A stretch of DNA of 40,000 nt from Marinobacter piscensis (lineage in GTDB: Bacteria > Pseudomonadota > Gammaproteobacteria > Pseudomonadales > Oleiphilaceae). Numbering within the stretch: the first letter of the stretch is position 1; every line of letters begins with the position of its first letter. The DNA lies in NCBI RefSeq assembly GCF_007671655.1, contig NZ_VCGX01000001.1, positions 613,917 to 653,916 on the forward strand, read 5' to 3'. The position numbers were made by a program, and so were the translations under genes. The notes beneath the pieces are model-generated. The model did no database searches, was not told where the DNA came from, and was given only the letters and a program-made list of their open reading frames with translations. Below, in pieces: positions 4,456 through 27,030 of the stretch.

Positions 4456-4521
4456 GACTATACCCTCGAATTTACGACTACAACGTATTACAGCATAGTC
4501 GATGAGGTTGCGGCAAAAATT

Positions 4522-4581
4522 TAACGCTAGTGGTAATGGGCGACGACGCAGCGCAGTTGGCGAACTTGAACGATTGGTTAT
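4522..4581 (-). repeat. attC site (paralogous to the 2186 site)
   Basis: TAACGCTAGTGGTAATGGGCGACGACGCAGCGCAGTTGGCG...GATTGGTTAT. Confidence 0.8.
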
Positions 4582-4618
4582 ACATAAGGCTACCACCCCC
4601 ACCAATGCCAAACCTTGG

Positions 4619-6295: not shown

Positions 6296-6556
6296 AAGCC
6301 GGCTCACCCGTTGGTTCCAGCCCTAATGCTCGGCTCGCATGCGAACTCCAAAGAAGCCCCGCACCTGCTCGCGATCCGGCACCGATACAAACTACCAGAC
6401 TACCCGGCGCGTTTGGAATTTTCGGCGAATTGCCCCGTAACCTGAACACCGAGTTGCCCACCAAAACCGATGCATTACTGGCGGCTGTGTTTTGCCCGAA
6501 AACAACTGCTAAAACGCGGTCAAACACCAAACCCAACAGCGATGAAGCCAGGCATA
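6296..6556 (-). other. ORF-poor cassette, family member 1 of 4
   Basis: 261-bp cassette. The only long frame starts inside the neighbouring attC. It shares sequence modules with cassettes 14881-15222, 18047-18352 and 18438-18776. Confidence 0.5.
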
Positions 6557-8269: not shown

Positions 8270-8344
8270 GTCGCCCAGTATGCCAAGTCCCTGTGCGGCA
8301 AGCGATTCGCGGTTCTGGCTATAGCGGCACCATGGCACTTGTGG

Positions 8345-8680
8345 TTACAGGATGGAGATGACCCCTTCCGCGCCAATGCGCTGCCAGGGCAGGCCCTGAA
8401 CCAAAGCGGATAACTGTTCTTCAGTCAGTCGCAGCTGGTCACCGCGCCAGGTTTCGCCCCAGTGGAACTTGCCCCGGTTCAGCCGGCGGGCACAGAGCCA
8501 GATACCGAGGCCATCGTGGATTAGCACTTTCATCCGGTTGCCCCGTTTGTTGGCAAACAGGTAGGCGCAATGGGGTCTGGCCGAACCAAACACCTGGATG
8601 ACTCGCGCCAGCGCCTTGTCCGGCCCCGCCCGCATATCCAGCGGCTCAGTGGCCAGCCAGATCTCATCGATGCGGATCAT
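8345..8680 (-). CDS. tnpB: IS66 Orf2 (TnpB)
   Basis: MIRIDEIWLATEPLDMRAGPDKALARVIQVFG...AYLFANKRGNRMKVLIHDGLGIWLCARRLNRGKFHW. ATGA overlap with the tnpA stop. Confidence 0.85.
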   Translation of the reverse strand: MIRIDEIWLATEPLDMRAGPDKALARVIQVFGSARPHCAYLFANKRGNRMKVLIHDGLGIWLCARRLNRGKFHWGETWRGDQLRLTEEQLSALVQGLPWQRIGAEGVISIL

Positions 8681-9054
8681 CCCAGCAGGTCCCGCAGTAA
8701 CACTGCACACTGATGGGCCTGCTCCACCGGCCACTCAACCACCACCGCGCCACCGGCGCGGGGAATCTCGATGCGGATGGTGCTACGCTTATTCAAAGCT
8801 GATTGGTTGCCAGATGCAGAAGATGCTGGTGGCAAGTTGACCGGCACGAACCCCGATGTTTTCGAGGGTACTTTATCCGCTCGGTGCGCCTCACTGATCC
8901 AGCGCCGAACCATGTTGGCGTTGAGGCCATTATCCAGAGAGATTCGAGAGACGGATGCGCCAGGCTCTTGGCACTGGGCAACAATCTCGGCTTTGAATTC
9001 CCGGGAAAACCGGCGACGTTTTTGGTAGGGCTTGGTTACGCTTAATTCGTTCAT
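8677..9054 (-). CDS. tnpA: IS66 Orf1 (TnpA, HTH)
   Basis: ...RRRFSREFKAEIVAQCQEPGASVSRISLDNGLNANMVRRWI... It is preceded by a 10-bp-arm palindrome, AGTGTCCACT-N8-AGTGGACACT, at about 9058-9085. Confidence 0.8.
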   Translation of the reverse strand: MNELSVTKPYQKRRRFSREFKAEIVAQCQEPGASVSRISLDNGLNANMVRRWISEAHRADKVPSKTSGFVPVNLPPASSASGNQSALNKRSTIRIEIPRAGGAVVVEWPVEQAHQCAVLLRDLLG

Positions 9055-10021: not shown

Positions 10022-10044
10022 GAGGGGATCTCCTTCTGTACATT

Positions 10045-10123
10045 TAACGCTTGCAGCATGCGCGCCTGCGGAATGGAGCCGAAGGCGCAATGTAGTAGGC
10101 GTCGCCGTGCCTGCACTTGTTAA
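10045..10123 (-). repeat. attC site, class A (identical copy at 18777-18855)
   Basis: Class A sequence, variant ...CGCGCCTGCGGAATGG...TAGTAGGCG...CACTTGTTAA. Confidence 0.9.
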
Positions 10124-10446
10124 CCATACTTGATGGCTAGCAAAGTTGCCGACACCAACGCTGCAGTGATGAACGGCACCAAAAATGTGAGCAAGGAGAC
10201 TCGATACTCTTTTACCGACTGATAAACCCAATAAGCAGCAATGAAGAAACAAGCCACGCCTACACCGTGGGCCCACTTGCCCGAAAACTCTGCAAGCTCC
10301 AAGCGCCCGGGAAGTGTCATATTGTCAAAATAAAAAGCCACCACGCCGGCAATTACGAACACGAAGCAGAGCAAGCCATTAATTACCGATAAACTCCGAC
10401 GGTAGTGGCCTGACTCTCTAATGACCGGATCAAACTTCCACAACAC
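10120..10446 (-). CDS. Small membrane protein (cassette gene, copy 1 of 2)
   Basis: Three predicted hydrophobic segments (LLCFVFVIAGVVAFYF, VGVACFFIAAYWVY, LLTFLVPFITAALVSATLLAI). The start is probably GTG/TTG at 10443-10446 after GGAGAG; the ATG at 10485 lies inside the attC. Confidence 0.55.
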   Translation of the reverse strand: MLWKFDPVIRESGHYRRSLSVINGLLCFVFVIAGVVAFYFDNMTLPGRLELAEFSGKWAHGVGVACFFIAAYWVYQSVKEYRVSLLTFLVPFITAALVSATLLAIKYG

Positions 10447-13655: not shown

Positions 13656-13734
13656 TAACGCTTGCAGCATGCGCGCCTTCGGAATGGAGCCGAAGGCGCA
13701 ATGTAGTAGGCGTCGCCGTGCCTGCACTGGTTAG
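13656..13734 (-). repeat. attC site, class A
   Basis: Class A sequence, variant ...GCGCCTTCGGAATGG. Confidence 0.9.
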
Positions 13735-14153
13735 GCATTCGACACCGTGGCAGATGCGACATACGCTAGCCCAACCATACCGAGAATAAAACAACCAAAA
13801 CCGATAGCCGCAAGAGTCCAAATTAACGATTCACACCAGCCTGGGCCATTTGGAGCATCGTGCCGATTCCCTTCTATATTTTTCCGCCACCTTTCTCCAA
13901 AGGCGTAATCCCTGCCAATGATCGCAACGAGGGATGAGGCTAGGCTCAGGATGGATATAAAGAGACCCCACCAAGATGCTTGCAGAATAGGAATGAGATC
14001 CTCAGATAGCAGTGCACGTGAAGAGCCACTGAAGAAGCCGATGGAGACGGCCAGCGAACCGCCGGCCAGTACGAAAATTGCTCGCACCAATGAATCTGCA
14101 CGACCCCGAAGGTCGGCCTGATGTGCGTTAAACTGCTCATTCTCGTCTGCCAT
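13731..14153 (-). CDS. Hypothetical membrane protein (cassette gene)
   Basis: 140 aa from the ATG at 14153, with three hydrophobic helices. The stop lies in the attC core. Confidence 0.55.
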   Translation of the reverse strand: MADENEQFNAHQADLRGRADSLVRAIFVLAGGSLAVSIGFFSGSSRALLSEDLIPILQASWWGLFISILSLASSLVAIIGRDYAFGERWRKNIEGNRHDAPNGPGWCESLIWTLAAIGFGCFILGMVGLAYVASATVSNA

Positions 14154-14165
14154 AGTTTTACTGCC

Positions 14166-14209
14166 TAACGCCCGCAATCACGCGCTTGTCGCGTGGATTG
14201 CATTGTTAT
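14166..14209 (-). repeat. attC site (very short)
   Basis: TAACGCCCGCAATCACGCGCTTGTCGCGTGGATTGCATTGTTAT; the cores plus CAATCACGCG/CGCGTGGATTG pairing. Confidence 0.6.
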
Positions 14210-14258: not shown

Positions 14259-14498
14259 GTGCAAAAGAACACCAGCATCACTTTAGGCCAACATTTTGAT
14301 GCGTTCATTGCAGAGCAGCTCAAAAATGGCCGATACAGCTCAACCAGCGAAGTTGTTCGGGCAGGATTGCGCCTGCTCGAAGAATCTGAGACTCGCCTGA
14401 CTACGCTCCGCAAACTGCTTAAGGAAGGCGAGGAAAGTGGTTTCGAAGACTACTCCTATGACTCGTTTATTCGTGAACTCGACAACGAAGGGCGCTGA
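14259..14498 (+). CDS. parD: ParD-family antitoxin
   Basis: (GTG)QKNTSITLGQHFDAFIAEQLKNGRYSSTSEVVRAGLRLLEESE... is the ParD (COG3609) pattern. Its stop overlaps the parE ATG. Confidence 0.8.
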   Translation: MQKNTSITLGQHFDAFIAEQLKNGRYSSTSEVVRAGLRLLEESETRLTTLRKLLKEGEESGFEDYSYDSFIRELDNEGR

Positions 14499-14794
14499 TG
14501 CCAAATTTCAAGCTTTCCAGGAAGGCCAAAGCTGACCTCAAATCTATTGCCCTATACACGGAGCGTGAATGGGGCCGAGATCAACGAAACCACTATATTC
14601 TTCAGTTCGATCAATGCTTCCACCTTCTCGGTGAAAATCCAAACCTGGGGCAAGCCTGCAATGAGATAAGCCCAGGCTACCGGCAGTACCCTCAGGGAAG
14701 CCACATCATCTTTTATCGGCTAGCCACCGACGATGTTGTTGAAATTATCCGCATCCTGCACAAACGCATGCTACCTGATGTGCATCTGATTTAG
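14498..14794 (+). CDS. parE: ParE-family toxin
   Basis: MPNFKLSRKAKADLKSIALYTEREWGRDQRNHYILQFDQCFHLLGENPNLG...IIFYRLATDDVVEIIRILHKRM. Confidence 0.8.
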   Translation: MPNFKLSRKAKADLKSIALYTEREWGRDQRNHYILQFDQCFHLLGENPNLGQACNEISPGYRQYPQGSHIIFYRLATDDVVEIIRILHKRMLPDVHLI

Positions 14795-15222: not shown

Positions 15223-15301
15223 TAACGCTTGCAGCATGCGCGCCCACGGAATGGAGCCGAAGGCGCAATGTAGTGGGTGTCGCCGTGCCTGCACTGGTTA
15301 T
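15223..15301 (-). repeat. attC site, class A
   Basis: Class A sequence. Confidence 0.9.
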
Positions 15302-15813
15302 GTTCGTCTATCAAGACGCTCCGCAGCTTCCAACATTTGCGCAAACTCGTTCTGCACAAACTCTTCGTTTACCCCATATTTCTCCCAGAGAGGCAGATAC
15401 AACCTGGTTAAAATCTCATCCGCCTTCTTGAACTCCGAGAGTATGGATTGGAGCTCCTTTTTCATCTCTTGACGACCCACCTCGGAAATAAAGTCCTCTG
15501 CTCGCTCCCGAAAATAACGATGAACAAGCATATTCCTGAGTTCCAATGTTTTACTCAGAAAATCGGCATCTTCTTCTGACAAACTCAGTTCTGATTTGGC
15601 CACCTTGAGAAGCCGCCCAAAGGTTCTTCGACCGAGAGAATCATACAGGTCCAAATATAGTTCCTGTGACACAAGGTTCACTTCCGGCAGTCGAAGCACC
15701 ACTGCTAGATTCAAAGCTGCCTCTTCAACAACCTGAGCGTAATAGGCCGTCAGCCCGAAAAATGCGAACGGCTCTTTGTCGCAGCAATTATCAATTTCAG
15801 GTATCTCAGGCAT
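15298..15813 (-). CDS. Hypothetical helical protein with HEPN-like RNxxxHxY motif (cassette gene)
   Basis: 171-aa ORF. ...TLELRNMLVHRYFRERAEDF... matches the R-N-x3-H-x-Y signature of HepT/DUF86-type HEPN RNases. No partner gene in the cassette. Confidence 0.45.
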   Translation of the reverse strand: MPEIPEIDNCCDKEPFAFFGLTAYYAQVVEEAALNLAVVLRLPEVNLVSQELYLDLYDSLGRRTFGRLLKVAKSELSLSEEDADFLSKTLELRNMLVHRYFRERAEDFISEVGRQEMKKELQSILSEFKKADEILTRLYLPLWEKYGVNEEFVQNEFAQMLEAAERLDRRT

Positions 15814-15835
15814 AGGAGCGACCCATCAAAGAACA

Positions 15836-15932
15836 TAACGAATGAGCTTAGCGGCGACCTTGTAATGGAGGCGTAGCCGCAATGAAAAGGGCGTCCGGCG
15901 GCCATCGGCCGCGTACTACAGCGACTTGTTAA
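15836..15932 (-). repeat. attC site (long class; paralogous to the 6557 site)
   Basis: TAACGAATGAGCTTAGCGGCGACCTTGTAATGGAGGCGTAGCCGCAATGAAAAGGGCGTCCGGCGG...CGACTTGTTAA. Confidence 0.85.
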
Positions 15933-15935
15933 AAG

Positions 15936-16229
15936 CTATCGCAGGCCACCCAAGGCCATGAGAGCAACGAACGATACCAACCTGCTAACGATAACCATCA
16001 GAATTATATCCGGCCAGATATTTGCTCTGCTGAATTTTTTGAGCAGAACAAAAAGCACGACAAGCGACAATAACCAGCCAATCGTAGGCACCAAAGCAAC
16101 GGCAGCGGCCCCACCCGCCGCAATGACAGTCTCACTCAATGCTAAGTCGACAAGGGTAATCTTTGCGGCAAGCCACAAAACCACGCCGCCGACTAAGGCA
16201 TCCAGCACTACAACTAACAACTCACCCAT
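15936..16229 (-). CDS. Small membrane protein (cassette gene)
   Basis: 97 aa, almost entirely hydrophobic, with about 3 helices. Confidence 0.55.
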   Translation of the reverse strand: MGELLVVVLDALVGGVVLWLAAKITLVDLALSETVIAAGGAAAVALVPTIGWLLSLVVLFVLLKKFSRANIWPDIILMVIVSRLVSFVALMALGGLR

Positions 16230-16248
16230 GGGGTCTATCCTTACCTTT

Positions 16249-16302
16249 TAACGCCTCAAACACCGGCGCCGTTCACGGCGTCCGAGTGCTTTGACTTGTT
16301 AG
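16249..16302 (-). repeat. attC site (short, 54 bp), translated as the C-terminus of the upstream ORF
   Basis: TAACGCCTCAAACACCGGCGCCGTTCACGGCGTCCGAGTGCTTTGACTTGTTAG. Confidence 0.7.
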
Positions 16303-16963
16303 CTGTATTTTGCACGACATTGGTAAGCATTGAGATTACTTTAAATTTGCCAAAGAAAACATGCACTAGAGTAATACTTGAACCGAAGTTTGGTATGCCA
16401 AAAACCTCTACTGTGTAGATCCTTTCATTGTTAGTGTTTGGCTTGCCGAATTCCATAAAGTCCATTGGTTTTCCGGAGTAGAATGCCTCAATCTCGGTTT
16501 CAATTTGATTCATCATCGGGTCTTGATCGCTAATTAAACTGCAATACATATGTTTTATTGAATAATTGTCTGGCAATGCAGAACCACAAGACTTAAAAAC
16601 AAGCCCACAAGATAGGGCATCAAAAAACTCATTTAATCTATCTGTATCAACTGGATACTTGACAGCTCCATCAGGTAGTTGAACCGATCCAGCAGCCAGT
16701 TTTTTTCTTAATGCTCCATTATTAAATTCTAGTTGGGGCTTTACTTTTTTTAAGAATATTTCCCGAGCTCTATTGCTCGGAGAGGCATTCATGCAGATTT
16801 GCGCGAGAACATAAAGATCATCTTTTGACTTGGCGTTGTTGTGAGCGACACATGATTTTACTGTTAATAGCTGATCTTTCTCATCCTTAGGGAAAAAGGC
16901 TTTTGGTGGGATATGCTCCTTTGTTACACCTTTTTGTGAACATCCTTGAAAGTAGCAATTCAA
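16256..16963 (-). CDS. HNH-like nuclease-motif protein (cassette gene)
   Basis: A TTG start at 16963 is preceded by AGGAGA at 6 nt. The N-terminus (L)NCYFQGCSQKGVTKEHIPPKAFFP...VKSCVAHNNAKSKDD resembles the C..C..EH...C..HN..K pattern of HNH endonucleases. It is followed by a roughly 170-aa domain of unknown function. The last 15 aa are encoded by the attC. Confidence 0.45.
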   Translation of the reverse strand: MNCYFQGCSQKGVTKEHIPPKAFFPKDEKDQLLTVKSCVAHNNAKSKDDLYVLAQICMNASPSNRAREIFLKKVKPQLEFNNGALRKKLAAGSVQLPDGAVKYPVDTDRLNEFFDALSCGLVFKSCGSALPDNYSIKHMYCSLISDQDPMMNQIETEIEAFYSGKPMDFMEFGKPNTNNERIYTVEVFGIPNFGSSITLVHVFFGKFKVISMLTNVVQNTANKSKHSDAVNGAGV

Positions 16964-16983
16964 TCTGATTCTCCTAGTACAGC

Positions 16984-17062
16984 TAACGCTTGCAGCATGC
17001 GCGCCTACGAAATGAAGCCGAAGGCGCAATGTAGTAGGCGTCGCCGTGCCTGCACTGGTTAA
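16984..17062 (-). repeat. attC site, class A
   Basis: Class A sequence, variant ...CCTACGAAATGAAGCC. Confidence 0.9.
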
Positions 17063-17070
17063 GCGCTGAA

Positions 17071-17385
17071 CTACAGGCCACGTTCGATAGCTTGTTTTAT
17101 AACCGGAGCCACAGTTTCCGGTGTGATGCCTCGGTCCTGACAATATCTAGTTTGCAGCCATACGGATAGCTGCTTTTGTCCTTTGCTCGCATTGCAGCCG
17201 CAACAGCAAAGGGCGATATTTTCTCTGGTTATGATGCTGGCATCGTTGATGATGTGCTCCCAGCTTGCCGCTGACTTTCTTGAAACTTTCACGGAGGTAA
17301 ACTCATTGCGACAATAAACGCATTCCGTATCTCGCGCTCGGATCTCTTTCTCCAGACCGTCCGGAATATTCCAGTTATTTGCCAT
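17071..17385 (-). CDS. HNH endonuclease (small, stand-alone)
   Basis: 104-aa ORF. ...ECVYCRNEF...ASWEHIINDASI...IALCCCGCNASKGQK is the canonical HNH CxxC...H...N...CxxCNxSK motif. Confidence 0.75.
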   Translation of the reverse strand: MANNWNIPDGLEKEIRARDTECVYCRNEFTSVKVSRKSAASWEHIINDASIITRENIALCCCGCNASKGQKQLSVWLQTRYCQDRGITPETVAPVIKQAIERGL

Positions 17386-17410
17386 TGCTCGAACTTACCT
17401 TTTTACCGCT

Positions 17411-17483
17411 TAACGCCAGCCATCACCGGTGGCAAAACCGGCGCGAAGCAGAGGTTTTGGCATCCGGTGCATGGCTTGGTTAT
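17411..17483 (-). repeat. attC site (paralogous to the 2735 site)
   Basis: TAACGCCAGCCATCACCGGTGGCAAAACCGGCGCGAAGCAGAGGTTTTGGCATCCGGTGCATGGCTTGGTTAT. Confidence 0.85.
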
Positions 17484-17947
17484 GCGCTCTCTCGGATGGC
17501 ACGGATATCCTCGATATCCACCGGCCGTGAGAGTGCAGATTTATACCGGACTAGATCCTCTTTCAGCATAAGGGGAAGCTCTAAGCCCAGCAAATTGACT
17601 GTTTTATAGCGAGAGAAATCTATGTTGAGCGGAACCCACGTCTCGCTGCCCGCATCAAAGATTCGCGGACCGTCAGCGCTACCTACCTCCACTTTAATGC
17701 CTTCATACGTGAACTGGACGTAGGTTAGGTCCCAACCTTCCTCCTGACGGTGAGCGGCTGCCTTGGATACAAATTCCTGACCATCCTGAACCACTGACGA
17801 AAAGTGTTTGCCAGGGACGAAAAGGTCGAGGTCATTCAGGTCACGCTCAGAGCCATATCCCTTAGCAGCGAGTCCCCCACAGATCAGAAAAGGGATATTC
17901 CTATTTCTGAGTAACCCCACAATCCATTGGGCTGCCAAATGATGCAC
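17480..17947 (-). CDS. Pol-beta-superfamily nucleotidyltransferase-fold protein (cassette gene)
   Basis: ...FLICGGLAAKGYGSERDLNDLDLFV... fits the hGG-x13-DhD nucleotidyltransferase motif. A GTG start at 17947 follows AAAGGAGGAGG; the ATG at 17977 lies inside the attC. Confidence 0.55.
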   Translation of the reverse strand: MHHLAAQWIVGLLRNRNIPFLICGGLAAKGYGSERDLNDLDLFVPGKHFSSVVQDGQEFVSKAAAHRQEEGWDLTYVQFTYEGIKVEVGSADGPRIFDAGSETWVPLNIDFSRYKTVNLLGLELPLMLKEDLVRYKSALSRPVDIEDIRAIRESA

Positions 17948-17965
17948 GCCTCCTCCTTTTGCGCA

Positions 17966-18046
17966 TAACGCCTGCATAAACGGCGCCCGACTAGGGCGTC
18001 CGGTGGACGGCCGTCAGGCCGGGAACGAATTTGATGCACTGGTTAG
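17966..18046 (-). repeat. attC site (GGCGTCCGG class)
   Basis: TAACGCCTGCATAAACGGCGCCC...GGGCGTCCGGTGGACGGCC...GATGCACTGGTTAG. Confidence 0.8.
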
Positions 18047-18352
18047 AAGCCGGTTCACCCGCTAGTTCCAGCCCTACTTCTCGGCTCGCATGCGAACTCC
18101 AAAGAAGCCACGCACCAGTTCACGGTCAGACACCGATACAAAGCACTAATCTATCCCCCTTACCCGGAACTTTCGGCGAACAGCCCCACAACCAGGGCAC
18201 GCGGCCGATAACCCGTAAAAATTCGATGCCAGCTACCAAATTAGACGACGGTTTTGCTGGCCTTGGCCATGACCTATAAACAGAAATGACCACCCAATTT
18301 GCCGCCAAGGCCCTGCGCCCAGCCACCAAAAAACTACCAAAGCCTTGGCTTA
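18047..18352 (-). other. ORF-poor cassette, family member 3 of 4
   Basis: The first ~70 nt (18047-18116) are about 91% identical to 6296-6365. The frame that is open in member 1 carries in-frame TGA codons here. Confidence 0.5.
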
Positions 18353-18437
18353 TAACGCGAAGGTAACCGGCGCCGGAGCGCCAGCGGAGGGAACCAAAAG
18401 CGGTACGCTTTTGGCGTCCGGTTGACCGGCTGGTTAG
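18353..18437 (-). repeat. attC site (non-class-A)
   Basis: TAACGCGAAGGTAACCGGCGCC...GGCGTCCGGTTGACCGGCTGGTTAG. Confidence 0.75.
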
Positions 18438-18776
18438 TGGCGGGTTTTGACGCTGCCTGCTCCCTGGCACTGACCATGACGGCCTACTCCGTTACCTCGC
18501 ACCGGCTGGCGCCGATACCGTTTGTTTGAAACCACCGCCAAGCATGCGGTGGATGGACCTGAACTCAAAGGTACCAGATCCTCACTAAAATTTCGGCGGA
18601 CGGCCCAAAACGACGAATGCCGAACTCACTACCAACACCGTTGCTGATTGAAGCAACCAACTCCGACGCGGACTCTGACGGCCTTGGTGCTCACCAGATT
18701 AAGCGGGTTTGGCTGCCAAGCCCGGCACCAAGGCCACTGGCACACAGCCACCCAAAAGGACCGAAGCCTTTGCCAT
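18438..18776 (-). other. ORF-poor cassette, family member 4 of 4
   Basis: 339 bp containing only short interrupted frames. It starts with the same GGCTTCGGT..TTTTGGGTGG module and carries a TCCGCCGAAA motif. Confidence 0.45.
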
Positions 18777-18855
18777 TAACGCTTGCAGCATGCGCGCCTG
18801 CGGAATGGAGCCGAAGGCGCAATGTAGTAGGCGTCGCCGTGCCTGCACTTGTTAA
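18777..18855 (-). repeat. attC site, class A (identical to 10045-10123)
   Basis: Base-for-base the same as the copy at 10045-10123. Confidence 0.9.
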
Positions 18856-19178
18856 CCATACTTGATGGCTAGCAAAGTTGCCGACACCAACGCTGCAGTG
18901 ATGAACGGCACCAAAAATGTGAGCAAGGAGACTCGATACTCTTTTACCGACTGATAAACCCAATAAGCAGCAATGAAGAAACAAGCCACGCCTACACCGT
19001 GGGCCCACTTGCCCGAAAACTCTGCAAGCTCCAAGCGCCCGGGAAGTGTCATATTGTCAAAATAAAAAGCCACCACGCCGGCAATTACGAACACGAAGCA
19101 GAGCAAGCCATTAATTACCGATAAACTCCGACGGTAGTGGCCTGACTCTCTAATGACCGGATCAAACTTCCACAACAC
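18852..19178 (-). CDS. Small membrane protein (cassette gene, copy 2 of 2)
   Basis: Identical to 10120-10446 at a constant offset of 8732 bp. Confidence 0.55.
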   Translation of the reverse strand: MLWKFDPVIRESGHYRRSLSVINGLLCFVFVIAGVVAFYFDNMTLPGRLELAEFSGKWAHGVGVACFFIAAYWVYQSVKEYRVSLLTFLVPFITAALVSATLLAIKYG

Positions 19179-19204
19179 ACAGCTCTCCAAGTTGCCAAAG
19201 TGGT

Positions 19205-19302
19205 TAACGCTTGCATAAACGGCGGCTTTTGCGCAGCGAAGCGGAGAAAAAGCCGTCCGGTGGAGGGCCATCGGCCCGGAACGAATTTAATGCACTGGTT
19301 AT
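19205..19302 (-). repeat. attC site (long, GCCGTCCGG class)
   Basis: TAACGCTTGCATAAACGGCGGC...GCCGTCCGGTGGAGGGCC...AATGCACTGGTTAT, 98 bp. Confidence 0.8.
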
Positions 19303-19940
19303 GTGTATCTATTTAGTATGATTTTCGCATAACCTGCGGCAAAGCGTTCATAATGAGCGTCATTCGGCACGAGAGTTTTATCATTAACAATAATTTCTGG
19401 AGCTTCCCTATCTATTTTGAATTCAAATCCATTAACGTCGAAACCGATTTCCGGGACTACACACCCATCATTTGGCGTATTTGCGATAAATACTTTAGTG
19501 CTTTCTATAAATAAAGAAACGACATCAACAAAGTCTTCAACCGAATTTTTTTCTGGAAAGTGAAACTCGTGCTCTATTAGGTTTCGCTCTTTGTTTAGCT
19601 TGCTTAAAATCCTTGGAGTAATAACTCCCAACCCTTCCAGATACCCTAGCTTAGAGGGAATATTCCATTTCTTTTTCTTGGAAACCGCTCGCATTCCAAT
19701 GCAATACAGAATCTCTTCGATACGGCAATCGAGAGCCCTCTTCGCGTTTGATAACGCATTCACAAGGTTACGCTTTTCTTTACCTAGCAAATCCTTCTCT
19801 GAAAACTCCAAATACTCTTTAGAGCTTACAGGGATTGGAAACTCTATCCGCTCCTCAATCTCGTTATCCATGATATCCACGCTATCACCCTCGAGAAGTG
19901 TCAGCATATCTTCAACCGTTTTATAGCAATCGCTTTCCAA
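19299..19940 (-). CDS. Hypothetical protein with HEPN-like RNxxxHxF motif (cassette gene)
   Basis: A TTG start at 19940 is preceded by GAGGAG at 7 nt; an alternative ATG at 19958 lies within the R' core. ...LSKLNKERNLIEHEFHFPEKNSVEDF... is an R-N-x3-H signature. AT-rich. Confidence 0.4.
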   Translation of the reverse strand: MESDCYKTVEDMLTLLEGDSVDIMDNEIEERIEFPIPVSSKEYLEFSEKDLLGKEKRNLVNALSNAKRALDCRIEEILYCIGMRAVSKKKKWNIPSKLGYLEGLGVITPRILSKLNKERNLIEHEFHFPEKNSVEDFVDVVSLFIESTKVFIANTPNDGCVVPEIGFDVNGFEFKIDREAPEIIVNDKTLVPNDAHYERFAAGYAKIILNRYT

Positions 19941-19957
19941 GCTAACTCTCCTCAACA

Positions 19958-20036
19958 TAACGTTTGCAGCATGCGCGCCCACGGAATGGAGCCGAAGGCG
20001 CAATGTAGTGGGCGTCGCTGTGCCTGCACTGGTTAT
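19958..20036 (-). repeat. attC site, class A
   Basis: Class A sequence, variant TAACGTTTGCAGC... Confidence 0.9.
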
Positions 20037-20042
20037 ACAGTG

Positions 20043-20666
20043 TTAGAAGAACACCTGCTCTGTCACGATTACACCAGCGACCTTTTTGTAAAACGGCTTT
20101 TCGCGATCATCACAGAGTTTGATGAAGGACTTATAGGTTGCAGGCTTAGTGAAAAGCAAAGTTACTTCTTCAAGGTTGAATTCATAGTCACCTTTTATCC
20201 TCCATTCCCGCTCATGAGTCCAATCTTTGAAAGACTCATCCTCGCTTATGTCGAAATTGACTATGCGCCACCACTCAGTGTCAGGAAGGTATTTCTTGGC
20301 TTCAGATGTCTTATCGTAAATTACGGGACGCCCGCCTTTTCGGTATATTTTCTGTTTGTGGAACAAGAAACCTGATGGAACATAACGCTTTTTTACTTGC
20401 TCACCGCTTTCTCGCAGCTTTTGCTCAAACCAGCAGTTCTGAGCTACAGCATGTACAGGAGCGTCCTGAAAGCAAACAGCGCGGCTTTTTCCGACGATGA
20501 ATCCCTTCTCAGTACTGCTACCGCGCAGAAGTTGTTCGTCGAGAATTTTAAACATTACCTCGACGATCTTACTGTTGGAAGGCGCTTTTGTAAGATGAAC
20601 AAGACTCGTAGAAAGGTCTGTACGTTCCGAGTAGCGACGCCTCCAACTATCTTTTGTATACGGCAA
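20043..20666 (-). CDS. AbiGi-like protein (abortive-infection antitoxin family resemblance; cassette gene)
   Basis: A TTG start at 20666 is preceded by AAGGGAG at 7 nt. ...SLVHLTK...AVCFQDAPV...YRKGGRPVIY...WTHEREWRIKGDY... recalls, from memory, the conserved blocks of AbiGi-family proteins. Confidence 0.45.
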   Translation of the reverse strand: MPYTKDSWRRRYSERTDLSTSLVHLTKAPSNSKIVEVMFKILDEQLLRGSSTEKGFIVGKSRAVCFQDAPVHAVAQNCWFEQKLRESGEQVKKRYVPSGFLFHKQKIYRKGGRPVIYDKTSEAKKYLPDTEWWRIVNFDISEDESFKDWTHEREWRIKGDYEFNLEEVTLLFTKPATYKSFIKLCDDREKPFYKKVAGVIVTEQVFF

Positions 20667-20689
20667 CTGAGCACTCCCTTGAATCTGTA

Positions 20690-20768
20690 TAACGCCAGCA
20701 GCATGCGCGCCCTTGAAATGGAGCCGAAGGCGCAATGTAAAGGGCGTCGCCGTGCCTGCATTGGTTAT
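20690..20768 (-). repeat. attC site, class A (first attC of the array)
   Basis: Class A sequence, variant TAACGCCAGCAGCATGCGCGCCCTTGAAATGG... Confidence 0.9.
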
Positions 20769-21322
20769 GCTTTTGCTTCAGACCGGTAACGTCGTGCATC
20801 AGTAATAAACCACTCTAACATTTGCCAGTGATCTAGTTTTGTAGCCTCATTGCCCATGCTTTTCCGAATTTCCAGCAGAAACTTCCCGACAAGCGAAATC
20901 ATCTCTACGATCTCATTCTCGGAGGGCGTTACACCCTGCTGCTCTCCGCGCTGGAAAAAGTATTGCATTAGGTCATTGTATGATGTGACCACGCTCTCGG
21001 AGCCAACAAGTGACATCTTGAATGCCTTTCTTCGATACTCCTGAGAAAGTAACTTCTGTTGCGCTATTTGATTTTTTTCGCGGGATTTATTTTTGGGATC
21101 TGACTTCCAGGCTGCATCTGAGGTGAAGAGGATTACGAACGGCTCAAGAATATCATTGTAGGTCTCGATTCGGTCGTCTCTGAGCTTATCTTCCAGCTGA
21201 AACTGCCTATCTAGACCGACCCTTATCCTCCAACCTATTCCGCTAAGTATCAGAACCAATATGGGAGTAGCGATGGCCCCTATTGCCGTGACCACTTCAA
21301 GCCAATTCGCACTATCTTCCAT
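20765..21322 (-). CDS. Hypothetical single-pass membrane protein (first cassette, attI-proximal)
   Basis: 185 aa: an N-terminal TM (VVTAIGAIATPILVLILSGIGW) followed by a helical soluble domain. AAGGAGAG lies 5 nt before the ATG at 21322. Confidence 0.6.
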   Translation of the reverse strand: MEDSANWLEVVTAIGAIATPILVLILSGIGWRIRVGLDRQFQLEDKLRDDRIETYNDILEPFVILFTSDAAWKSDPKNKSREKNQIAQQKLLSQEYRRKAFKMSLVGSESVVTSYNDLMQYFFQRGEQQGVTPSENEIVEMISLVGKFLLEIRKSMGNEATKLDHWQMLEWFITDARRYRSEAKA

Positions 21323-21340
21323 GAACTCTCCTTCTTAGAG

Positions 21341-21375
21341 CATAACAGCTAATTATACGAACGAGTTCGTATATC
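21341..21375 (-). other. attI recombination site (core GTTATG plus adjacent palindrome)
   Basis: Minus strand reads TATACGAAC-TC-GTTCGTATAATTAGCT-GTTATGC, then the SD and ATG of cassette 1. It is the last GTTRRRY core before intI. Confidence 0.7.
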
Positions 21376-21399
21376 ACTCATTCGTAAAACCCCATTCAA
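21371..21399 (-). promoter_or_regulatory. Candidate cassette promoter (Pc-like) reading into the array
   Basis: Minus strand reads TTGAAT-17 nt-TGATAT. The -10 abuts the attI palindrome. Weak hexamers. Confidence 0.25.
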
Positions 21400-21597
21400 A
21401 CCCGTTCGAAAGAACAGGATTTCCTGCAATAAAACAAACCTTTAAGCAACAAACACCATGGCTACCGCCAGAGTTATACGCCCTCTTTTGAGCCACTCCC
21501 ACTCTAGCCAGGGGCGTATAATTCCACCTTTCCTGTTGCTACTTTTGAACCCTATCAGATAGTTACCTTCTTTTCTCGGGCGAGTTCTGACGTTTTG

Positions 21598-21613
21598 CGA
21601 ACACGTTCGTATA
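21598..21613. promoter_or_regulatory. Second copy of the CGAAC-NN-GTTCGTATA palindrome, upstream of the intI promoter
   Basis: CGAACACGTTCGTATA here versus CGAACGAGTTCGTATA at 21358-21373. Confidence 0.35.
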
Positions 21614-21634
21614 ACTCCACTAATCGACAGCCTC

Positions 21635-21676
21635 TTGACTTTAGCGACAACCGTTATACTGTATATAAAAACAGCA
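21635..21676 (+). promoter_or_regulatory. intI promoter region with LexA (SOS) box
   Basis: TTGACT (-35) at 21635-21640. CTGTATATAAAAACAG at 21659-21674 matches the gammaproteobacterial CTG-N10-CAG LexA box and covers the -10/+1 region, 13 nt before the intI start. Confidence 0.75.
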
Positions 21677-21687
21677 CTTAAGGATCA

Positions 21688-22680
21688 GTGGATATGGATA
21701 TCCCTACCCCCATACCGACACAGCCAACCCGTTTTTTAGATAAAGTTCGGGCCTTTATACGTCTGAGAGGCATGGCGTATAAAACAGAGAAAACCTACCT
21801 ATTCTGGATCAAGCGCTTTATCCGCTTCCATGGCCGCCGGCACCCTGAAACTATGGGCTCTGCAGAAGTTGAAGCATTTTTGTCTCATCTGGTTTTGCAG
21901 GCAAACGCAAGCGCCTCCACTCAGAGAGTCGCTTTGAATGCCCTGATATTTTTATATCGGGAATTTCTTGGCCATCCTTTAGATGACCTGAACTTCAAAC
22001 ACTCCAAAAAGCCAGTGAAGCTTCCAACCGTCTTCAGTGCGGAAGAAGCAAGATCCGTTATTGGCAATCTGAACGGAGACTACAAGCTTGTTGCCATGCT
22101 TCTCTATGGTTCTGGCCTGCGTATCAACGAAGCACTGCGTTTGAGAGTTAAAGACGTAGATTTTAATATGCAGCAATTGATTGTCCGTAGCGGCAAAGGC
22201 GCTAAAGATCGCATTACGCTGCTTCCGGATCGCCTCGTTGAGCCGTTAAAACAACAAATTGATTCAGCGCTGCACCAGCACCAGGCAGATCTTTTGAAAG
22301 GGTCTGGCTCCGTATATCTTCCCGCGGGCCTGGCACGTAAATATCCGAATGCCAGTCAGGAGCCGGGCTGGCAATATATCTTTCCCGCACAGGAGCTTTC
22401 AAAGGATCCTCGTTCAGGTATTAGCAGGCGACATCATTTAATGGACCGAACAGTTCAAAAACATTTTCGTCACGCTATCCAGGCTGCCGGAATCCGCAAG
22501 CTCGCGGGCAGTCATACTTTTCGCCACAGTTTTGCCACGCGCCTGCTAGAAACTGGCTATGATATTCGCACCATTCAGAAGCTCCTCGGCCACTCAGATA
22601 TACGCACCACAGAAATCTACACCCATGTTGTTCACAAAGGTGGTTTTGGTGTTCGCAGCCCGGTGGACGAGGGCTTCTGA
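21688..22680 (+). CDS. intI: Integron integrase IntI (tyrosine recombinase)
   Basis: 330-aa ORF with the IntI-specific insertion ...[37 protein letters not shown]... and the catalytic region ...[39 protein letters not shown]... The start is GTG 21688 or ATG 21694. Confidence 0.95.
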
Positions 22681-22702: not shown

Positions 22703-23761
22703 TCACCACTCCAACTGCGCCCCGGTCTGATACTCAATCACTCGCGTCTCAAAGAAGTTCTTCTCTTTGCGCATGGTGGCCTGTTCTTCCAGCCAGGGTG
22801 ATACGTTTTTGGCGCCGGGGAACGGGTCTTCCAGGCCTACGGTGCGGGCTCTTCGGTTGGCCACAAACCGGAATTGTTCGGTGTGGTATTCCGCCGAGTA
22901 GCCCAGAATCGGGTCCCGCAAAATGTAGTCAGCGTAGTCTTTCTCTACGGCTTCGGATTCGTCCCACATCTCGCGCACGGCTCTGTGATCAAGGCTGATG
23001 TTTTCTTCTTCCAGAATCTGGTTCACCACTTTCAGGCCGAAGGCGAAGTGCATGGCTTCGTCGCGCAGTATGTATTGCAGTTGTTCGCCGGTGCCGCGCA
23101 TCAGGCCGCGTCTTTGCAGGGCGAAGATGGGGCTGAAACCGTTGTAGAACCAGCAGCCTTCAAATACGCCGGCAAAGAACAGGTACGACATGATGAATTC
23201 CTGCAGGTCGTCTTTGTTGCGCAGGTTGATGTCGGGGCGCATAGCGGCGTCGAGGCGGCGGTTGGCCATCTGGATTTTGGCATTGATTTGCGGCACGACG
23301 CGGTAGCGGTTGTAGATTTCGCTCTGGTCCAGGTTGAGGGTTTCTATGCAATGCTGGTAGGCCCAGGTGTGCATGGCTTCTTCGTATACTTGACGCGCCT
23401 GGTAGATTTGCAGTTCCGGGGCGGTCATTTTTTCCATCACCGCCAGGCCGATGTTGCGCATGGCCAGGATGTCGGAGGTGGTGAGGTAGGCCAGCACGTT
23501 TTCGAAGACGTGTTTTTCCGCCGGGTTCAGGCGGTGGTGGTAGTCGTGAACGTCCTGGCTCATGTTTACATCCAGCGGCGTCCAGTGGTTTTTGTTGGCG
23601 TTCATAAAGAACTCCCAGGCCCAGGGGTACTTGAACGGTGCCAGCTGGTTTACGTCGGTTTCGCCGTTGATCACGCGTTTGTCGTCGGCGTTTACGGGGG
23701 CCACGCTGCTATCGGCAGCAGGCTGGGCTTGTGATTTGGTTTCGTCGTCCCAGTTCAGCAT
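22703..23761 (-). CDS. nrdB: Ribonucleotide-diphosphate reductase class Ia beta subunit
   Basis: 352-aa ORF with ferritin-like diiron motifs (...YEEAMHTWAY..., ...RDEAMHFAFG...). It lies directly downstream of nrdA. Confidence 0.9.
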   Translation of the reverse strand: MLNWDDETKSQAQPAADSSVAPVNADDKRVINGETDVNQLAPFKYPWAWEFFMNANKNHWTPLDVNMSQDVHDYHHRLNPAEKHVFENVLAYLTTSDILAMRNIGLAVMEKMTAPELQIYQARQVYEEAMHTWAYQHCIETLNLDQSEIYNRYRVVPQINAKIQMANRRLDAAMRPDINLRNKDDLQEFIMSYLFFAGVFEGCWFYNGFSPIFALQRRGLMRGTGEQLQYILRDEAMHFAFGLKVVNQILEEENISLDHRAVREMWDESEAVEKDYADYILRDPILGYSAEYHTEQFRFVANRRARTVGLEDPFPGAKNVSPWLEEQATMRKEKNFFETRVIEYQTGAQLEW

Positions 23762-23892: not shown

Positions 23893-26661
23893 TTACTGAC
23901 AAGCCTCACAATCTGGCTCGTCAATGCTGCATACCTGCGGCTGTGGCGCCGCAACCGGAGCCGCTTGCTGGTTTACGCCGGTGGCACCCAGTGAGCGCAG
24001 GTAGTAGGTGGTTTTCAGGCCACGCTCCCAGGCCAGTTGATAGAGTTCGTCGAGTTTTCTGCCGCTGGGTTCAGCCATGTACAGGTTCAGACTCTGGGCC
24101 TGGTCGAGCCATTTCTGGCGGCGGGAGGCGGCTTCTACCAGCCAGCGGGCGTCGATTTCAAAGGCGGTGGCATAGCGGGATTTCAGTTCGGTGGGTATGC
24201 GGTCGATTTGCTGCACGCTGCCGTCGTAGTATTTGAGGTCGTTCACCATCACGTTGTCCCACAGGCCTTCGGCTTTTAGATCGCGCACCAGTGAGGGGTT
24301 CACCACGGTGAATTCGCCGGAGAGGTTCGATTTCACAAACAGGTTCTGGTACGCCGGTTCAATGGACTGGGATACGCCCACAATGTTGGAGATGGTGGCG
24401 GTGGGGGCGATGGCCATAACGTTGCTGTTGCGCATGCCGTGTTTGGCAATAAGCTCACGCACCGGCGTCCAGTCCAGGCGGCTGTCGGTGTTCACGCTCA
24501 GGTCGCCGTCTTTGCGGGCGGCTTTAAGGTGTTCAATGGAGTCGATGGGCAGCACACCCTGGCTCCATAGCGAGCCTTCGTAGCTTTCATAAGCGCCCCG
24601 CTCGGCCGCCAGTTGTGCTGAAGCGCGAATGGCGAAGTAGCTCAGCTGTTCCATGGCCACATCGGCAAACTCAACAGCTTCCGGGCTGGTGTATGCCAGG
24701 CGCAGTTTATACAACGCATCCTGAAAGCCCATCAGGCCGAGGCCTACCGGGCGGTGTTTCAGGTTGGAGTTGCGGGCCTGGGGCACGGCGTAGTAGTTGA
24801 TGTTGATTACGTTATCGAGCATGCGCACGGCGGTGTTCACAGTGCGTTCAAGGCGCTGCACATCCAGCTCGCCGTTGGCGATATGGGCGGCCAGGTTTAC
24901 GGAGCCCAGGTTGCACACAGCAATCTCATCGGCGCTGGTGTTGAGAGTGATCTCGGTACACAGGTTGGAGCTGTGCACCACGCCCTTGTGCTGCTGCGGC
25001 GAGCGCAGGTTGCTGGGGTCTTTGAAGGTAATCCAGGGGTGGCCGGTCTCAAACAGCACGGTCAGCATTTTGCGCCACAGCTGTTTGGCGGAGATAGTTT
25101 TAAACAGCTCGATTTTGCCTTCCGCCGCCAGTGCTTCGTAATGTTCGTAGCGCTCGCGGAATTCGTTGCCGTACAGGTCGTGCAAATCGGGCACGTCGCT
25201 GGGGCTGAACAGGGTCCAGTCGCGGTCTTCGCGCATGCGTTCAATCAGCAGATCCGGTACCCAGTTGGCGGTGTTCATATCGTGGGTGCGGCGGCGCTCG
25301 TCGCCGGTGTTTTTGCGCAACTCCAGAAACTCTTCAATGTCCAGATGCCAGCTTTCCAGGTAGGCGCACACGGCACCTTTACGCTTCCCACCCTGGTTTA
25401 CAGCGACGGCGGTGTCGTTCACCACTTTCAGGAAAGGCACAATGCCCTGGCTCTGGCCGTTGGTGCCTTTGATGCGGGAGCCCAGGGCGCGTACCGGGGT
25501 CCAGTCGTTGCCCAGGCCGCCAGCCCATTTGGAGAGCATGGCGTTGTCGCGGATCGATCCGTAGATGTCTTCCAGATCGTCGCCCACGGTGGTGAGGTAG
25601 CAGGACGACAGCTGAGAGTGACGCGTGCCACTGTTGAACAGTGTCGGCGTGGAAGCCATGTAGTCGAATGAGGACAACAGATTGTAGAACTCGATGGCAC
25701 GGGCGTTGGGGTCGTCTTCCCGCAGGGCCAGGCCCATGGCGACGCGCATGAAAAACACCTGGGGCAGTTCCAGGCGGGCGTCTTTCCAGTGCAGGAAGTA
25801 GCGGTCGAACAGGGTTTGCAGGCCGAGGAAACCAAACTGCAGGTCCTGTTCGGGTTTCAGGGCAGCGCCCAGGCGCTCCAGATCGAAAGCCGCCATGGCT
25901 TCGTCCAGCAATTCATAGCGAATGCCGGCGTGGATGAAGGCACTCAGAGCCTGTGGATACACGTCGGCAAGGCTCAGGCTGGTATCCAGGTTCAGTGCGC
26001 TCAGGCTTTCAAGTCGTAGCTGTTCCAGCAACAGGCGGGCGGTCACCGCGCTGTAATCCGGCTCTCTTTCAATGCGCCCGCGAGCGGTCATGATCAATGC
26101 GCTCAGCACTTCGGCTTCATCAATGCCGTTGTAGAGATTACGGATAGACTCCTCTACCAGAGATTCACCATCAATGCCTTCCAGCCCCGCCGAAGCCTGC
26201 TCTACCTGTTGTTTCATCCGGCCCAGGTCCAGGGGCGCGGTACAGCCATCAGCCTGTTTTACGGTGAGATGCGGGTGGGCTTCTACCGGCTCGTGCAAGG
26301 CCCGTTCGTGGGCCTGCTTTTCGCGGTAAAGCACATAAGCACGAGCCACTTTTTGCTCTTCTGCCCGCATCAGGGCCAGTTCTACCTGATCCTGGATGTC
26401 TTCAATATGAACCCGGCCTCCGGCTTTCAGGCGGCGGCTGATGGCCTGCACCACCTGCTCGGTTACCCGGTGAACGGCATCGTTAATGTGGGCCGAGCCG
26501 GCAGCCTCGTCGCCTTCAACGGCAAGGAAGGCCTTGGTGACCGCCACGCTGATTTTGGAAGGGGTAAAGCTGACCAGATTGCCGTTGCGTTTGATAACCT
26601 GAAGGGCTTCTGTGTCGGATGGTGCAGCGGGCCGGGCTTCGGCCTGAGCAGTCGCAGACAT
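23893..26661 (-). CDS. nrdA: Ribonucleotide-diphosphate reductase class Ia alpha subunit
   Basis: 922 aa from the ATG at 26661, preceded by AGGAGA at 7 nt. It has an N-terminal ATP-cone (VIKRNGNLVSFTPSKI), the catalytic region ...NLCTEI..., and a C-terminal CxxxxxxCxxC tail. Confidence 0.95.
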   Translation of the reverse strand: MSATAQAEARPAAPSDTEALQVIKRNGNLVSFTPSKISVAVTKAFLAVEGDEAAGSAHINDAVHRVTEQVVQAISRRLKAGGRVHIEDIQDQVELALMRAEEQKVARAYVLYREKQAHERALHEPVEAHPHLTVKQADGCTAPLDLGRMKQQVEQASAGLEGIDGESLVEESIRNLYNGIDEAEVLSALIMTARGRIEREPDYSAVTARLLLEQLRLESLSALNLDTSLSLADVYPQALSAFIHAGIRYELLDEAMAAFDLERLGAALKPEQDLQFGFLGLQTLFDRYFLHWKDARLELPQVFFMRVAMGLALREDDPNARAIEFYNLLSSFDYMASTPTLFNSGTRHSQLSSCYLTTVGDDLEDIYGSIRDNAMLSKWAGGLGNDWTPVRALGSRIKGTNGQSQGIVPFLKVVNDTAVAVNQGGKRKGAVCAYLESWHLDIEEFLELRKNTGDERRRTHDMNTANWVPDLLIERMREDRDWTLFSPSDVPDLHDLYGNEFRERYEHYEALAAEGKIELFKTISAKQLWRKMLTVLFETGHPWITFKDPSNLRSPQQHKGVVHSSNLCTEITLNTSADEIAVCNLGSVNLAAHIANGELDVQRLERTVNTAVRMLDNVININYYAVPQARNSNLKHRPVGLGLMGFQDALYKLRLAYTSPEAVEFADVAMEQLSYFAIRASAQLAAERGAYESYEGSLWSQGVLPIDSIEHLKAARKDGDLSVNTDSRLDWTPVRELIAKHGMRNSNVMAIAPTATISNIVGVSQSIEPAYQNLFVKSNLSGEFTVVNPSLVRDLKAEGLWDNVMVNDLKYYDGSVQQIDRIPTELKSRYATAFEIDARWLVEAASRRQKWLDQAQSLNLYMAEPSGRKLDELYQLAWERGLKTTYYLRSLGATGVNQQAAPVAAPQPQVCSIDEPDCEACQ

Positions 26662-26967
26662 ACCTGTGTCTCCTGAGTACGCGTGAATTCCATTACCTTC
26701 GCGTACGCAGGACAAACCGGTGCACCAGTCAATCGTAGCTGGTACTGTGGCCGTGCTTGTTGCTGCTTACCTTAACAGAGCCAAATGCAGGCGCCTGAGT
26801 CGCGAAGGTACAGTTATCCCTGGCAGGTCTTCGGACTCAGGGGCGTGAACCGTTTACTCGCTGGTTCTGCCTTGCGTGGCGACTTCCCGGCTTGTGCCAG
26901 TGTCTTTTTGCCACGCTCGTTCCCCAATACCGCTGCGCGTCAGTTCCGGATTCTCACCGGATTCCCG

Positions 26968-27030
26968 ATACCATATCTGGTATATAACCAAGGACGCAGC
27001 CACTATATACGGGACATTCAGAGGAAACAA
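26968..27030 (-). promoter_or_regulatory. Candidate nrdA promoter with two NrdR-box-like sites
   Basis: Minus strand reads TTGTTT-17 nt-TATAGT (27030-27002). Box-like 16-mers at 27000-27015 (CCACTATATACGGG half-match) and 26968-26983 (ATACCATATCTGGTAT) have centres 32 bp apart. Confidence 0.4.

Follow-up and report, generated by a model that had tools for sequence, protein, structure and literature searches.

Candidate anti-phage genes among single-gene cassettes at the attI end of a Marinobacter sedentary chromosomal integron

Introduction

Do the cassettes nearest to the insertion site of a chromosomal integron in Marinobacter piscensis include genes that protect the cell against phage? The question is raised by a 40,000-nt stretch of contig NZ_VCGX01000001.1 (positions 613,917 to 653,916 of the forward strand; hereafter the window), in which positions 15226-21345 form a 6.1-kb block of eleven integron cassettes on the minus strand, read leftwards from attI and each holding at most one gene. 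A first-pass annotation had proposed that this block is candidate anti-phage cargo. That proposal survives in part: relatives of two cassettes, C9 and C2 (numbered outwards from attI), are found in defence contexts, whilst five of the eleven cassettes have no defence signature. Taken together, the evidence makes it probable that at least one cassette encodes an anti-phage gene, acting through RNA or DNA cleavage or through Abi-type growth arrest, and unlikely that the entire block serves as defence cargo. The expectation of at least one such gene is founded on the conflict-type proteins encoded here, on the guilt-by-association of C9 and C2, and on a precedent in Vibrio cholerae. C9 and C2 are the strongest candidates because their relatives sit in defence islands, in the cargo of integrative and conjugative elements (ICEs), at a prophage-end hotspot and in other cassette arrays; the C9 family is the most promising lead, and could prove to be a new defence family.

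Integron structure

The block forms the attI-proximal part of a sedentary chromosomal integron in Marinobacter and is composed of eleven independently mobilisable cassettes, as established by the integrase, the attI crossover, the series of folded attC sites and the array that continues beyond them. The integrase gene intI is intact, and its translation retains the C-terminal catalytic region (RHSFATRLL...GHSD...TEIYTHV). Compared over the full length with integrase loci in 14 Marinobacter genomes, the product shows 87-94% identity; against integron-type integrases of other phyla the figure is 40-53%. From the attI crossover at 21346, further G/TT crossovers fall at 20693, 19961, 19208, 18780, 18356, 17969, 17414, 16987, 16252, 15839 and 15226; the block limits first proposed (15223-21346) are right to within 3 nt of the outermost of these. 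All eleven attC sites are legible in the sequence. Extracted and folded, they measure 58-101 nt with folding energies of -24 to -39 kcal/mol, the outer boxes R'' (..TAAC) and R' (GTTA..) pair with one another, and in all eleven the more stable fold is that of the window's plus strand, which is the bottom, recombining strand of the cassettes. A 127-nt attC repeat family recurs in 11 copies along the array alongside other attC types, and the array runs on to around position 900, comprising more than 20 co-oriented, chromosomal cassettes of similar attC type. Both marks of a sedentary chromosomal integron are present: an adjacent, divergent integrase, and an array bounded by attI and attC sites.

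Nine of the cassettes are coding, and the coordinates of all nine open reading frames (ORFs) given in the first-pass annotation are right, the starts chosen there (TTG 20666, TTG 19940, GTG 19178, GTG 17947 and TTG 16963) lying behind Shine-Dalgarno-like sequences. The integrase gene and the cassettes, in order from attI and with protein lengths in amino acids (aa), are as follows.

intI, 21688..22680, plus strand: integron integrase, 330 aa, divergent from the cassettes.
Cassette 1 (C1), 20693..21345, minus strand: ORF 21322-20765, 185 aa, N-terminal transmembrane (TM) helix and a helical domain.
Cassette 2 (C2), 19961..20692, minus strand: ORF 20666-20043 (TTG behind GGGAG), 207 aa, AbiGi/DUF2971-like.
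Cassette 3 (C3), 19208..19960, minus strand: ORF 19940-19299 (TTG), 213 aa, HEPN-like, with NALSNAKR and RNxxEH motifs.
Cassette 4 (C4), 18780..19207, minus strand: ORF 19178-18852 (GTG), 108 aa, two-TM membrane protein.
Cassette 5 (C5), 18356..18779, minus strand: without a convincing ORF.
Cassette 6 (C6), 17969..18355, minus strand: without a convincing ORF; a recurrent Marinobacter cassette family.
Cassette 7 (C7), 17414..17968, minus strand: ORF 17947-17480 (GTG), 155 aa, minimal Pol-beta-fold nucleotidyltransferase.
Cassette 8 (C8), 16987..17413, minus strand: ORF 17385-17071, 104 aa, small HNH protein.
Cassette 9 (C9), 16252..16986, minus strand: ORF 16963-16256 (TTG), 235 aa, N-terminal CCCH / EH...HN motif.
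Cassette 10 (C10), 15839..16251, minus strand: ORF 16229-15936, 97 aa, polytopic membrane protein.
Cassette 11 (C11), 15226..15838, minus strand: ORF 15813-15298, 171 aa, all-helical and HEPN-like, with E30...R93-N94-x3-H98.

Six of the nine coding cassettes (C2, C3, C7, C8, C9 and C11) encode small stand-alone proteins from families of the type found in conflict systems. Five of the six enzyme or Abi labels first given to them stand at the level of the family, the exception being the HNH-like label of C9.

Cassettes 9 and 2

The C9 protein belongs to a widespread, unannotated family, with 385 homologues at 62-93% identity across phyla (in Klebsiella, Serratia, Aeromonas, Pectobacterium, Pseudomonas, Ottowia, Bacteroidota, Rickettsiales and others), none of which carries a Pfam domain or a name. 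Eleven of its residues, in one-letter code with C for cysteine, are invariant even when relatives at 20-40% identity are included: C8, E16, H17, P19, P20, C38, H41, N42, K45, D49 and R109. In the AlphaFold2 (AF2) model (pLDDT 79, pTM 0.79) the conserved motif, residues C3/C8...E16-H17...C38-x2-H41-N42, lies on a beta(14-18)-beta(33-37)-alpha(39-45) arrangement, and its spacing parallels that of the CxxC...EH...N...CxxC-N motif of the cassette 8 protein. This fits an N-terminus built as a zinc-bound His-Me finger, on a reading of the sequence and not as the result of a search. A profile-profile comparison of the C9 and C8 families returned nothing, and the likeness of C9 to PtuB, the HNH protein of Septu systems, is one of motif and beta-beta-alpha secondary-structure pattern only, a PtuB match being found in a single, weak case among 26 relatives (1.7e-3).

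The genomic surroundings of C9 relatives give real guilt-by-association support. In Pseudomonas viridiflava a C9 homologue lies among a ParE toxin-antitoxin (TA) pair, a Pycsar system (AGS_C and PycTM), a DUF4435 and AAA_15 pair and an Abi_2 gene; it starts 12 nt downstream of a gene for a 372-aa Ser/Thr-type protein kinase (locus L036, 5871-7699), and the two may represent a two-gene variant of the system. Homologues in Klebsiella and Pectobacterium are ICE cargo. The Escherichia coli TUM14664 homologue, 32% identical (E 7e-42), is located at a prophage end, past the tail-fibre genes and beside a GIY-YIG gene; plasmid pMAQU01 of Marinobacter nauticus carries a distant relative just after a SIR2 gene; and the Vibrio parahaemolyticus homologue lies within a cassette-like array. 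The stop codon of C9 itself falls inside its 58-nt attC (window positions 16246-16303), and several homologues elsewhere end in similar attC-encoded C-terminal tails (..TANKSKHSDA.., ..AAGLANPAVQG..), which is why many of them are probably cassette-borne too. A phage origin was considered for both C9 and C2 and rejected, as neither has a match among 50,697 phage genomes.

A fuller account of C9 can be put forward tentatively, as possible rather than probable. The family would be a widely transferred, single-protein defence family, in which a cryptic zinc-bound His-Me-finger nuclease head (residues C3, C8, E16-H17, C38 and H41-N42) is joined to a new beta-rich C-terminal domain without a solved counterpart, and which acts on its own, whether in integron cassettes, ICEs or plasmids or at prophage ends.

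C2 also belongs to a large family, with at least 861 homologues of near-constant length (about 207 aa, which also supports the TTG start) in Vibrio, Aeromonas, Shewanella, Comamonas, Achromobacter, Malaciobacter and non-proteobacterial metagenome-assembled genomes. The blocks LVHLT, CFQDAP, RP, WRIVN and DWTHEREWR are invariant across it. The AbiGi-like label first attached to C2 can be upheld at the level of the family because 12 of 28 relatives match the Pfam AbiGi model (best 5.8e-6), seven of the 28 match that of PADLOC (best 3.9e-6), and tblastn with the window copy reaches plasmid genes that carry an AbiGi-family annotation (E 1e-5 to 1e-7). PDB searches with C2, by single sequence and by profile, gave nothing useful.

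The neighbours of C2 relatives again include defence genes. The Achromobacter relative is found in an array of small, co-oriented genes together with HEPN_AbiU2, a CAP12/PCTIR TIR protein and a GIY-YIG protein; a Rhizobium AbiGi-family gene lies directly upstream of a Shedu nuclease gene; and on an ICE of Malaciobacter marinus (locus L034, 7001-11106) the C2 homologue overlaps by 7 nt the start of a gene for a 1163-aa YobI-type ATPase, the two being probably operon partners. With AbiG of Lactococcus (AbiGi with AbiGii; PF10899) the C2 family has in common a similarity to the AbiGi domain, at low significance. It departs from AbiG in that C2 is a single gene without AbiGii (its 732-nt cassette has one ORF, and neither C1 nor C3 gives an AbiGii or Abi match), in that the window copy escapes the AbiGi models, and in that its relatives stand alone or pair with a YobI ATPase or Shedu nuclease.

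Cassettes 8, 7, 3 and 11

C8, initially described as a small HNH nuclease, earns that label from matches to the PADLOC PtuB models (E 2e-7; C8 residues 17-75 against model positions 49-108 of 213) and to PHROG endonuclease VII and HNH families (down to 1e-5), together with a motif, C22xxC25...E43-H44...N56...CxxC64-N65, read from the sequence; its scores against Pfam HNH and HNH_5 are sub-threshold. It thus resembles the HNH core of Septu PtuB and the phage HNH and endonuclease VII families. In contrast to PtuB, however, C8 has only 104 aa and covers around 60 of the 213-240 model positions, and the block differs from Septu in having no PtuA ATPase gene.

The nucleotidyltransferase label of C7 is likewise sustained. 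The protein passes the cut-off of Pfam DUF2204 (21.9 bits against 20.3), matches the PDB structures of the putative nucleotidyltransferase TM1012 (E 1e-3), and shows in its translation the GS...DxD motif (G32-S33...D39-L-D41) of the TM1012/DUF2204 family, which itself has no link to any defined defence system. C7 has no match in PADLOC-DB, AbiE-system models included, nor in NCBIfam, and in view of the latter a role as an antibiotic nucleotidyltransferase was discarded.

C3 and C11 share an RNxxxH motif, at residues 119-124 of C3 and 93-98 of C11. C3 has 72 homologues, the top one 100% identical and itself labelled Marinobacter piscensis; N61, S64, N65, K67, R68, R119, N120, E123 and H124 are invariant in 30 relatives, one of which matches HEPN_RiboL-PSP (5e-6) and one HepT-like. 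For C11, with 1079 representative relatives, E30, R93, N94 and H98 are invariant in 35 sequences; the protein matches phrog_12893 at 1.5e-5, its AF2 model is all-alpha with a pLDDT of 94, and its family profile gives a weak PDB match to 2fpn, Bacillus subtilis YwmB (E 2e-4). PDB sequence searches with C3 yielded nothing useful. The matches of both families to HEPN models (HepT-like, RiboL-PSP-HEPN) fall exactly on the motif, at sub-threshold scores, and only one or two relatives per family reach E<0.01 against HEPN profiles. With the HEPN superfamily (HepT, RiboL-PSP-HEPN, AbiJ/AbiU2-type) the two proteins have in common the invariant Rx4H motif and, in the case of the likewise all-helical C11, a conserved upstream acidic residue, E30; they differ from it in scoring under every family threshold and, for C11, in a fold search that recovers no HEPN structure. 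Unlike type VII HepT-MNT systems, neither has an adjacent MNT, the C7 nucleotidyltransferase lying three cassettes from each. On their motifs, and not on profile scores or fold, C3 and C11 may be called HEPN-like.

Defence and its alternatives

Against a defensive role for these cassettes stands a considerable number of results. Firstly, PADLOC models run on the nine proteins and on four family alignments identify no complete named defence system, returning component-level matches only (PtuB-like for C8, AbiGi for relatives of C2), in agreement with the opinion formed from the sequence by eye that no named system was recognisable. Secondly, the window copies themselves are elusive. C2 has no match at E<=1 in Pfam or PADLOC and none of significance in NCBIfam or PHROGs. 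C9 has none in Pfam, PADLOC, NCBIfam, PHROGs or PDB profile searches, nor does Foldseek find a match that would make it an HNH protein by fold; the HNH-like label first given to this 235-aa protein is a matter of motif, to which profile and fold searches give no backing. C3 matches no HEPN profile, and nothing significantly in Pfam, NCBIfam or PHROGs. C11 stays under the cut-offs of HepT-like (17.7 bits, with 23.5 required) and of NCBIfam HepT_toxin (14.7 bits, with 60 required), and Foldseek recovers no HEPN structure from its confident model. The earlier assignment of C3 and C11 to HEPN therefore stands as regards the motif, which is invariant in both families, but not as regards profiles or, for C11, fold; when the two families are compared profile to profile the motifs align, at an insignificant probability of 0.3%. 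What surrounds the relatives of C3 and C11 is uninformative: short contigs, further cassette-like arrays or ordinary neighbourhoods. Thirdly, three membrane-protein and two ORF-poor cassettes, five of the eleven, carry no defence signature, and a consensus scan finds no sigma-70 promoter near attI.

The claim that such genes are enriched near attI is a weak point. Enzyme or Abi-type cassettes account for six of the eleven proximal cassettes and for none of the distal ones, which number about 20 when TA cassettes are left aside (Fisher p = 6e-4), but the statistic is post hoc, and it does not decide against a chance sample because the distal unknown cassettes were scanned with Pfam only, less deeply than the block. 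The alternative that fares best is that the block represents an ordinary draw from the cassette pool, its clustering at attI a product of chance and post hoc labels, and its proteins either unrelated in function to phage or scarcely expressed; arrays of this kind commonly hold small nucleic-acid enzymes and membrane proteins without assigned function. To this the defence-free five cassettes lend weight, as do the sub-threshold standing of the majority of labels, the mixture of metabolic, TA and unknown cassettes in the less deeply searched distal array and the lack of a promoter found on the attI side; moreover, around 82% of the unknown cassettes tested in V. cholerae showed no anti-phage activity (10.1101/2024.07.02.601686). 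A chance sample would not, however, lead one to expect that relatives of C9 and C2 recur beside bona fide defence genes in unrelated genomes, nor that catalytic-type residues remain invariant across divergent homologues, an invariance that shows purifying selection on an activity. The cassette-pool explanation is considered quite unlikely.

Alternatively, the nuclease-like cassettes may be toxins or modules of addiction or competition, serving as selfish array stabilisers, as factors directed against plasmids or other mobile genetic elements (MGEs) or, for the 104-aa HNH protein, as a homing-type endonuclease. Classical TA cassettes number at least six in the same array, toxins often have HEPN or HNH domains, and C9 and C2 homologues occur on ICEs and plasmids, where anti-MGE or entry-exclusion roles are plausible; but this explanation is weakened by the absence of an antitoxin-like second ORF from all six cassettes, a free-standing, constitutively active toxin beside attI would not be tolerated, and the contexts in P. 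viridiflava and at the E. coli prophage end are classical anti-phage hotspots. It is considered slightly less likely than the cassette-pool explanation.

Were one or more of the cassettes anti-phage genes, as is favoured here, they would be transcribed from the attI side. Upon infection, the HEPN-like proteins (C3, C11) would cut RNA and the HNH-like proteins (C8, C9) DNA, with growth arrest or destruction of phage nucleic acid as the outcome. C2 would be either a sensor or regulator or else an effector in its own right; elsewhere, its family pairs with differing effectors.

Other features of the locus

Between the first cassette and the integrase gene lie two further elements.

attI region, 21340..21614, minus strand: crossover GTTATGC at 21346-21340, four TTATACG(N2)C motifs, and TATAAT at 21357-21352.
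LexA-box-like palindrome CTGTATATAAAAACAG, 21659..21674, no strand assigned: CTGT-N8-ACAG, 14 nt upstream of the intI start.

The TTATACG-N2-C motif occurs in four copies, arranged as inverted pairs (21353-21362, 21474-21483, 21512-21521 and 21605-21614), and nowhere else in the 40 kb; four copies were reached in none of 100 shuffles, and the motifs may be accessory integrase-binding sites. Integron integrases are known to be under SOS control, and the palindrome CTGTATATAAAAACAG suggests the same for this intI. It is the sole CTGT-N8-ACAG match within the window; a chance match arose in 30 of 100 shuffles, and it is the position alone that is suggestive. A perfect TATAAT on the minus strand (21352-21357), six bases ahead of the attI crossover, reads into cassette 1 and has no recognisable -35 element.

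The remaining five cassettes of the block are much as they had been described, with TM segments in C1, C4 and C10, a duplicated membrane protein in C4 and two ORF-poor cassettes, C5 (18779-18356) and C6 (18355-17969), in which no convincing ORF was found. C1, whose TM window spans residues 6-33, has no match in Pfam, PADLOC, NCBIfam or PHROGs; its relatives are 17 metagenomic proteins (53-99% identity), with none among the plasmids or viral contigs searched. C4 equally has no family match in scans of Pfam, PADLOC, NCBIfam and PHROGs. Its attC and two thirds of its gene (18776-19075) are 100% identical over 300 nt to positions 10044-10343, 8.7 kb deeper, which indicates a recent duplication of the cassette within the array. 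C10 is the sole block protein common to another Marinobacter array (locus L005, 91%).

For C5, three Marinobacter arrays yield only partial matches, at about 70%. C6 is a member of a recurrent family with copies at window positions 6297-6442 and in two further loci (L003, 7938-8248; L005, 95-403), at 76-79% identity and with strongly conserved blocks TTTGTATCGGTG and GGCTTCTTTGGAGTTCGCATGCGAGCC. The possibility that these cassettes are RNA genes was set aside, since neither has an Rfam match and their folding z-scores (-0.9 for C5, +0.15 for C6) indicate no excess folding. A small-protein gene was rejected in turn for C6: a frame in the forward orientation is kept across the family, yet its start and stop are inconsistent and one copy has a frameshift.

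Beyond the block, the distal array comprises metabolic-type cassettes (chorismate mutase, GFA), TA cassettes and unknowns, with further ORFs that resemble, by eye, a GNAT acetyltransferase and a glyoxalase. The TA cassettes include CcdAB (888-1513), two HigBA pairs and ParDE/RelE-like pairs at 1612-2126, 3902-4611 and 14259-14794. A distal cassette on the minus strand (13731-14177) encodes a 148-aa membrane protein with a weak DUF4231 match (E 0.004), which may be a further candidate effector outside the block. An insertion resembling the IS66 family by eye (6725-9054; ORFs of 125, 129 and 537 aa) lies within the array and adjoins the C6 paralogue. The integrase and array are flanked by the class I ribonucleotide reductase genes nrdB (22703-23761) and nrdA (23893-26715), upstream of which a cobalamin riboswitch is found on the minus strand (26805-27007, 91 bits).

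The composition of the block also bears on its history. C2, C3 and C9 have a G+C content of 0.40-0.46 against 0.54-0.58 in the flanking chromosome, and the opening 10 kb of 14 related Marinobacter arrays contain none of the block's enzyme cassettes. The only block cassettes common to related Marinobacter integrons are C10 and the ORF-poor C6. Low G+C and absence from those arrays fit a rapid turnover of cassettes and do not date the insertions. The first-pass expectation that cassettes at this end should be the newest and the most strongly expressed is general knowledge about integrons, carried over to this locus.

Precedents and implications

The format of the block has precedents. In V. cholerae's sedentary chromosomal integron, 16 cassettes (18% of those tested) confer phage resistance, mostly through single genes, and the set includes a HEPN-only protein and two distant His-Me-finger proteins, most of them missed by defence finders (bioRxiv 10.1101/2024.07.02.601686). 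Later screens have added further cassette-borne systems (10.64898/2026.03.17.712381), and that paper cites Kieffer et al. 2025 and Getz et al. 2025 as also describing integron-borne defence cassettes. The V. cholerae systems Esos, Sirona and Nemetona (Darracq et al., Science 2025) have the same layout, a large chromosomal array in which each attC-bounded cassette holds a single small gene, and they were overlooked by standard defence finders, just as the block has no complete named system. The host genus is different, Marinobacter, and the likeness is one of description, not of sequence comparison. Single-gene defence cassettes in integrons are thus already published and the block is a further instance, with families that are uncharacterised in the libraries searched.

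Integron arrays are now seen as stores of compact anti-phage genes, and nearly all the examples tested come from Vibrio. The Marinobacter block provides a short list of single-gene candidates, among which the C9 family and the solo C2 family combine broad taxonomic spread with neighbours in defence islands. Should the candidates prove inactive, the block would be an ordinary sample of cassette diversity. Should they prove active, C2 and C9 would add very small and experimentally handy systems, and could clarify the role of AbiGi-type proteins that stand alone.

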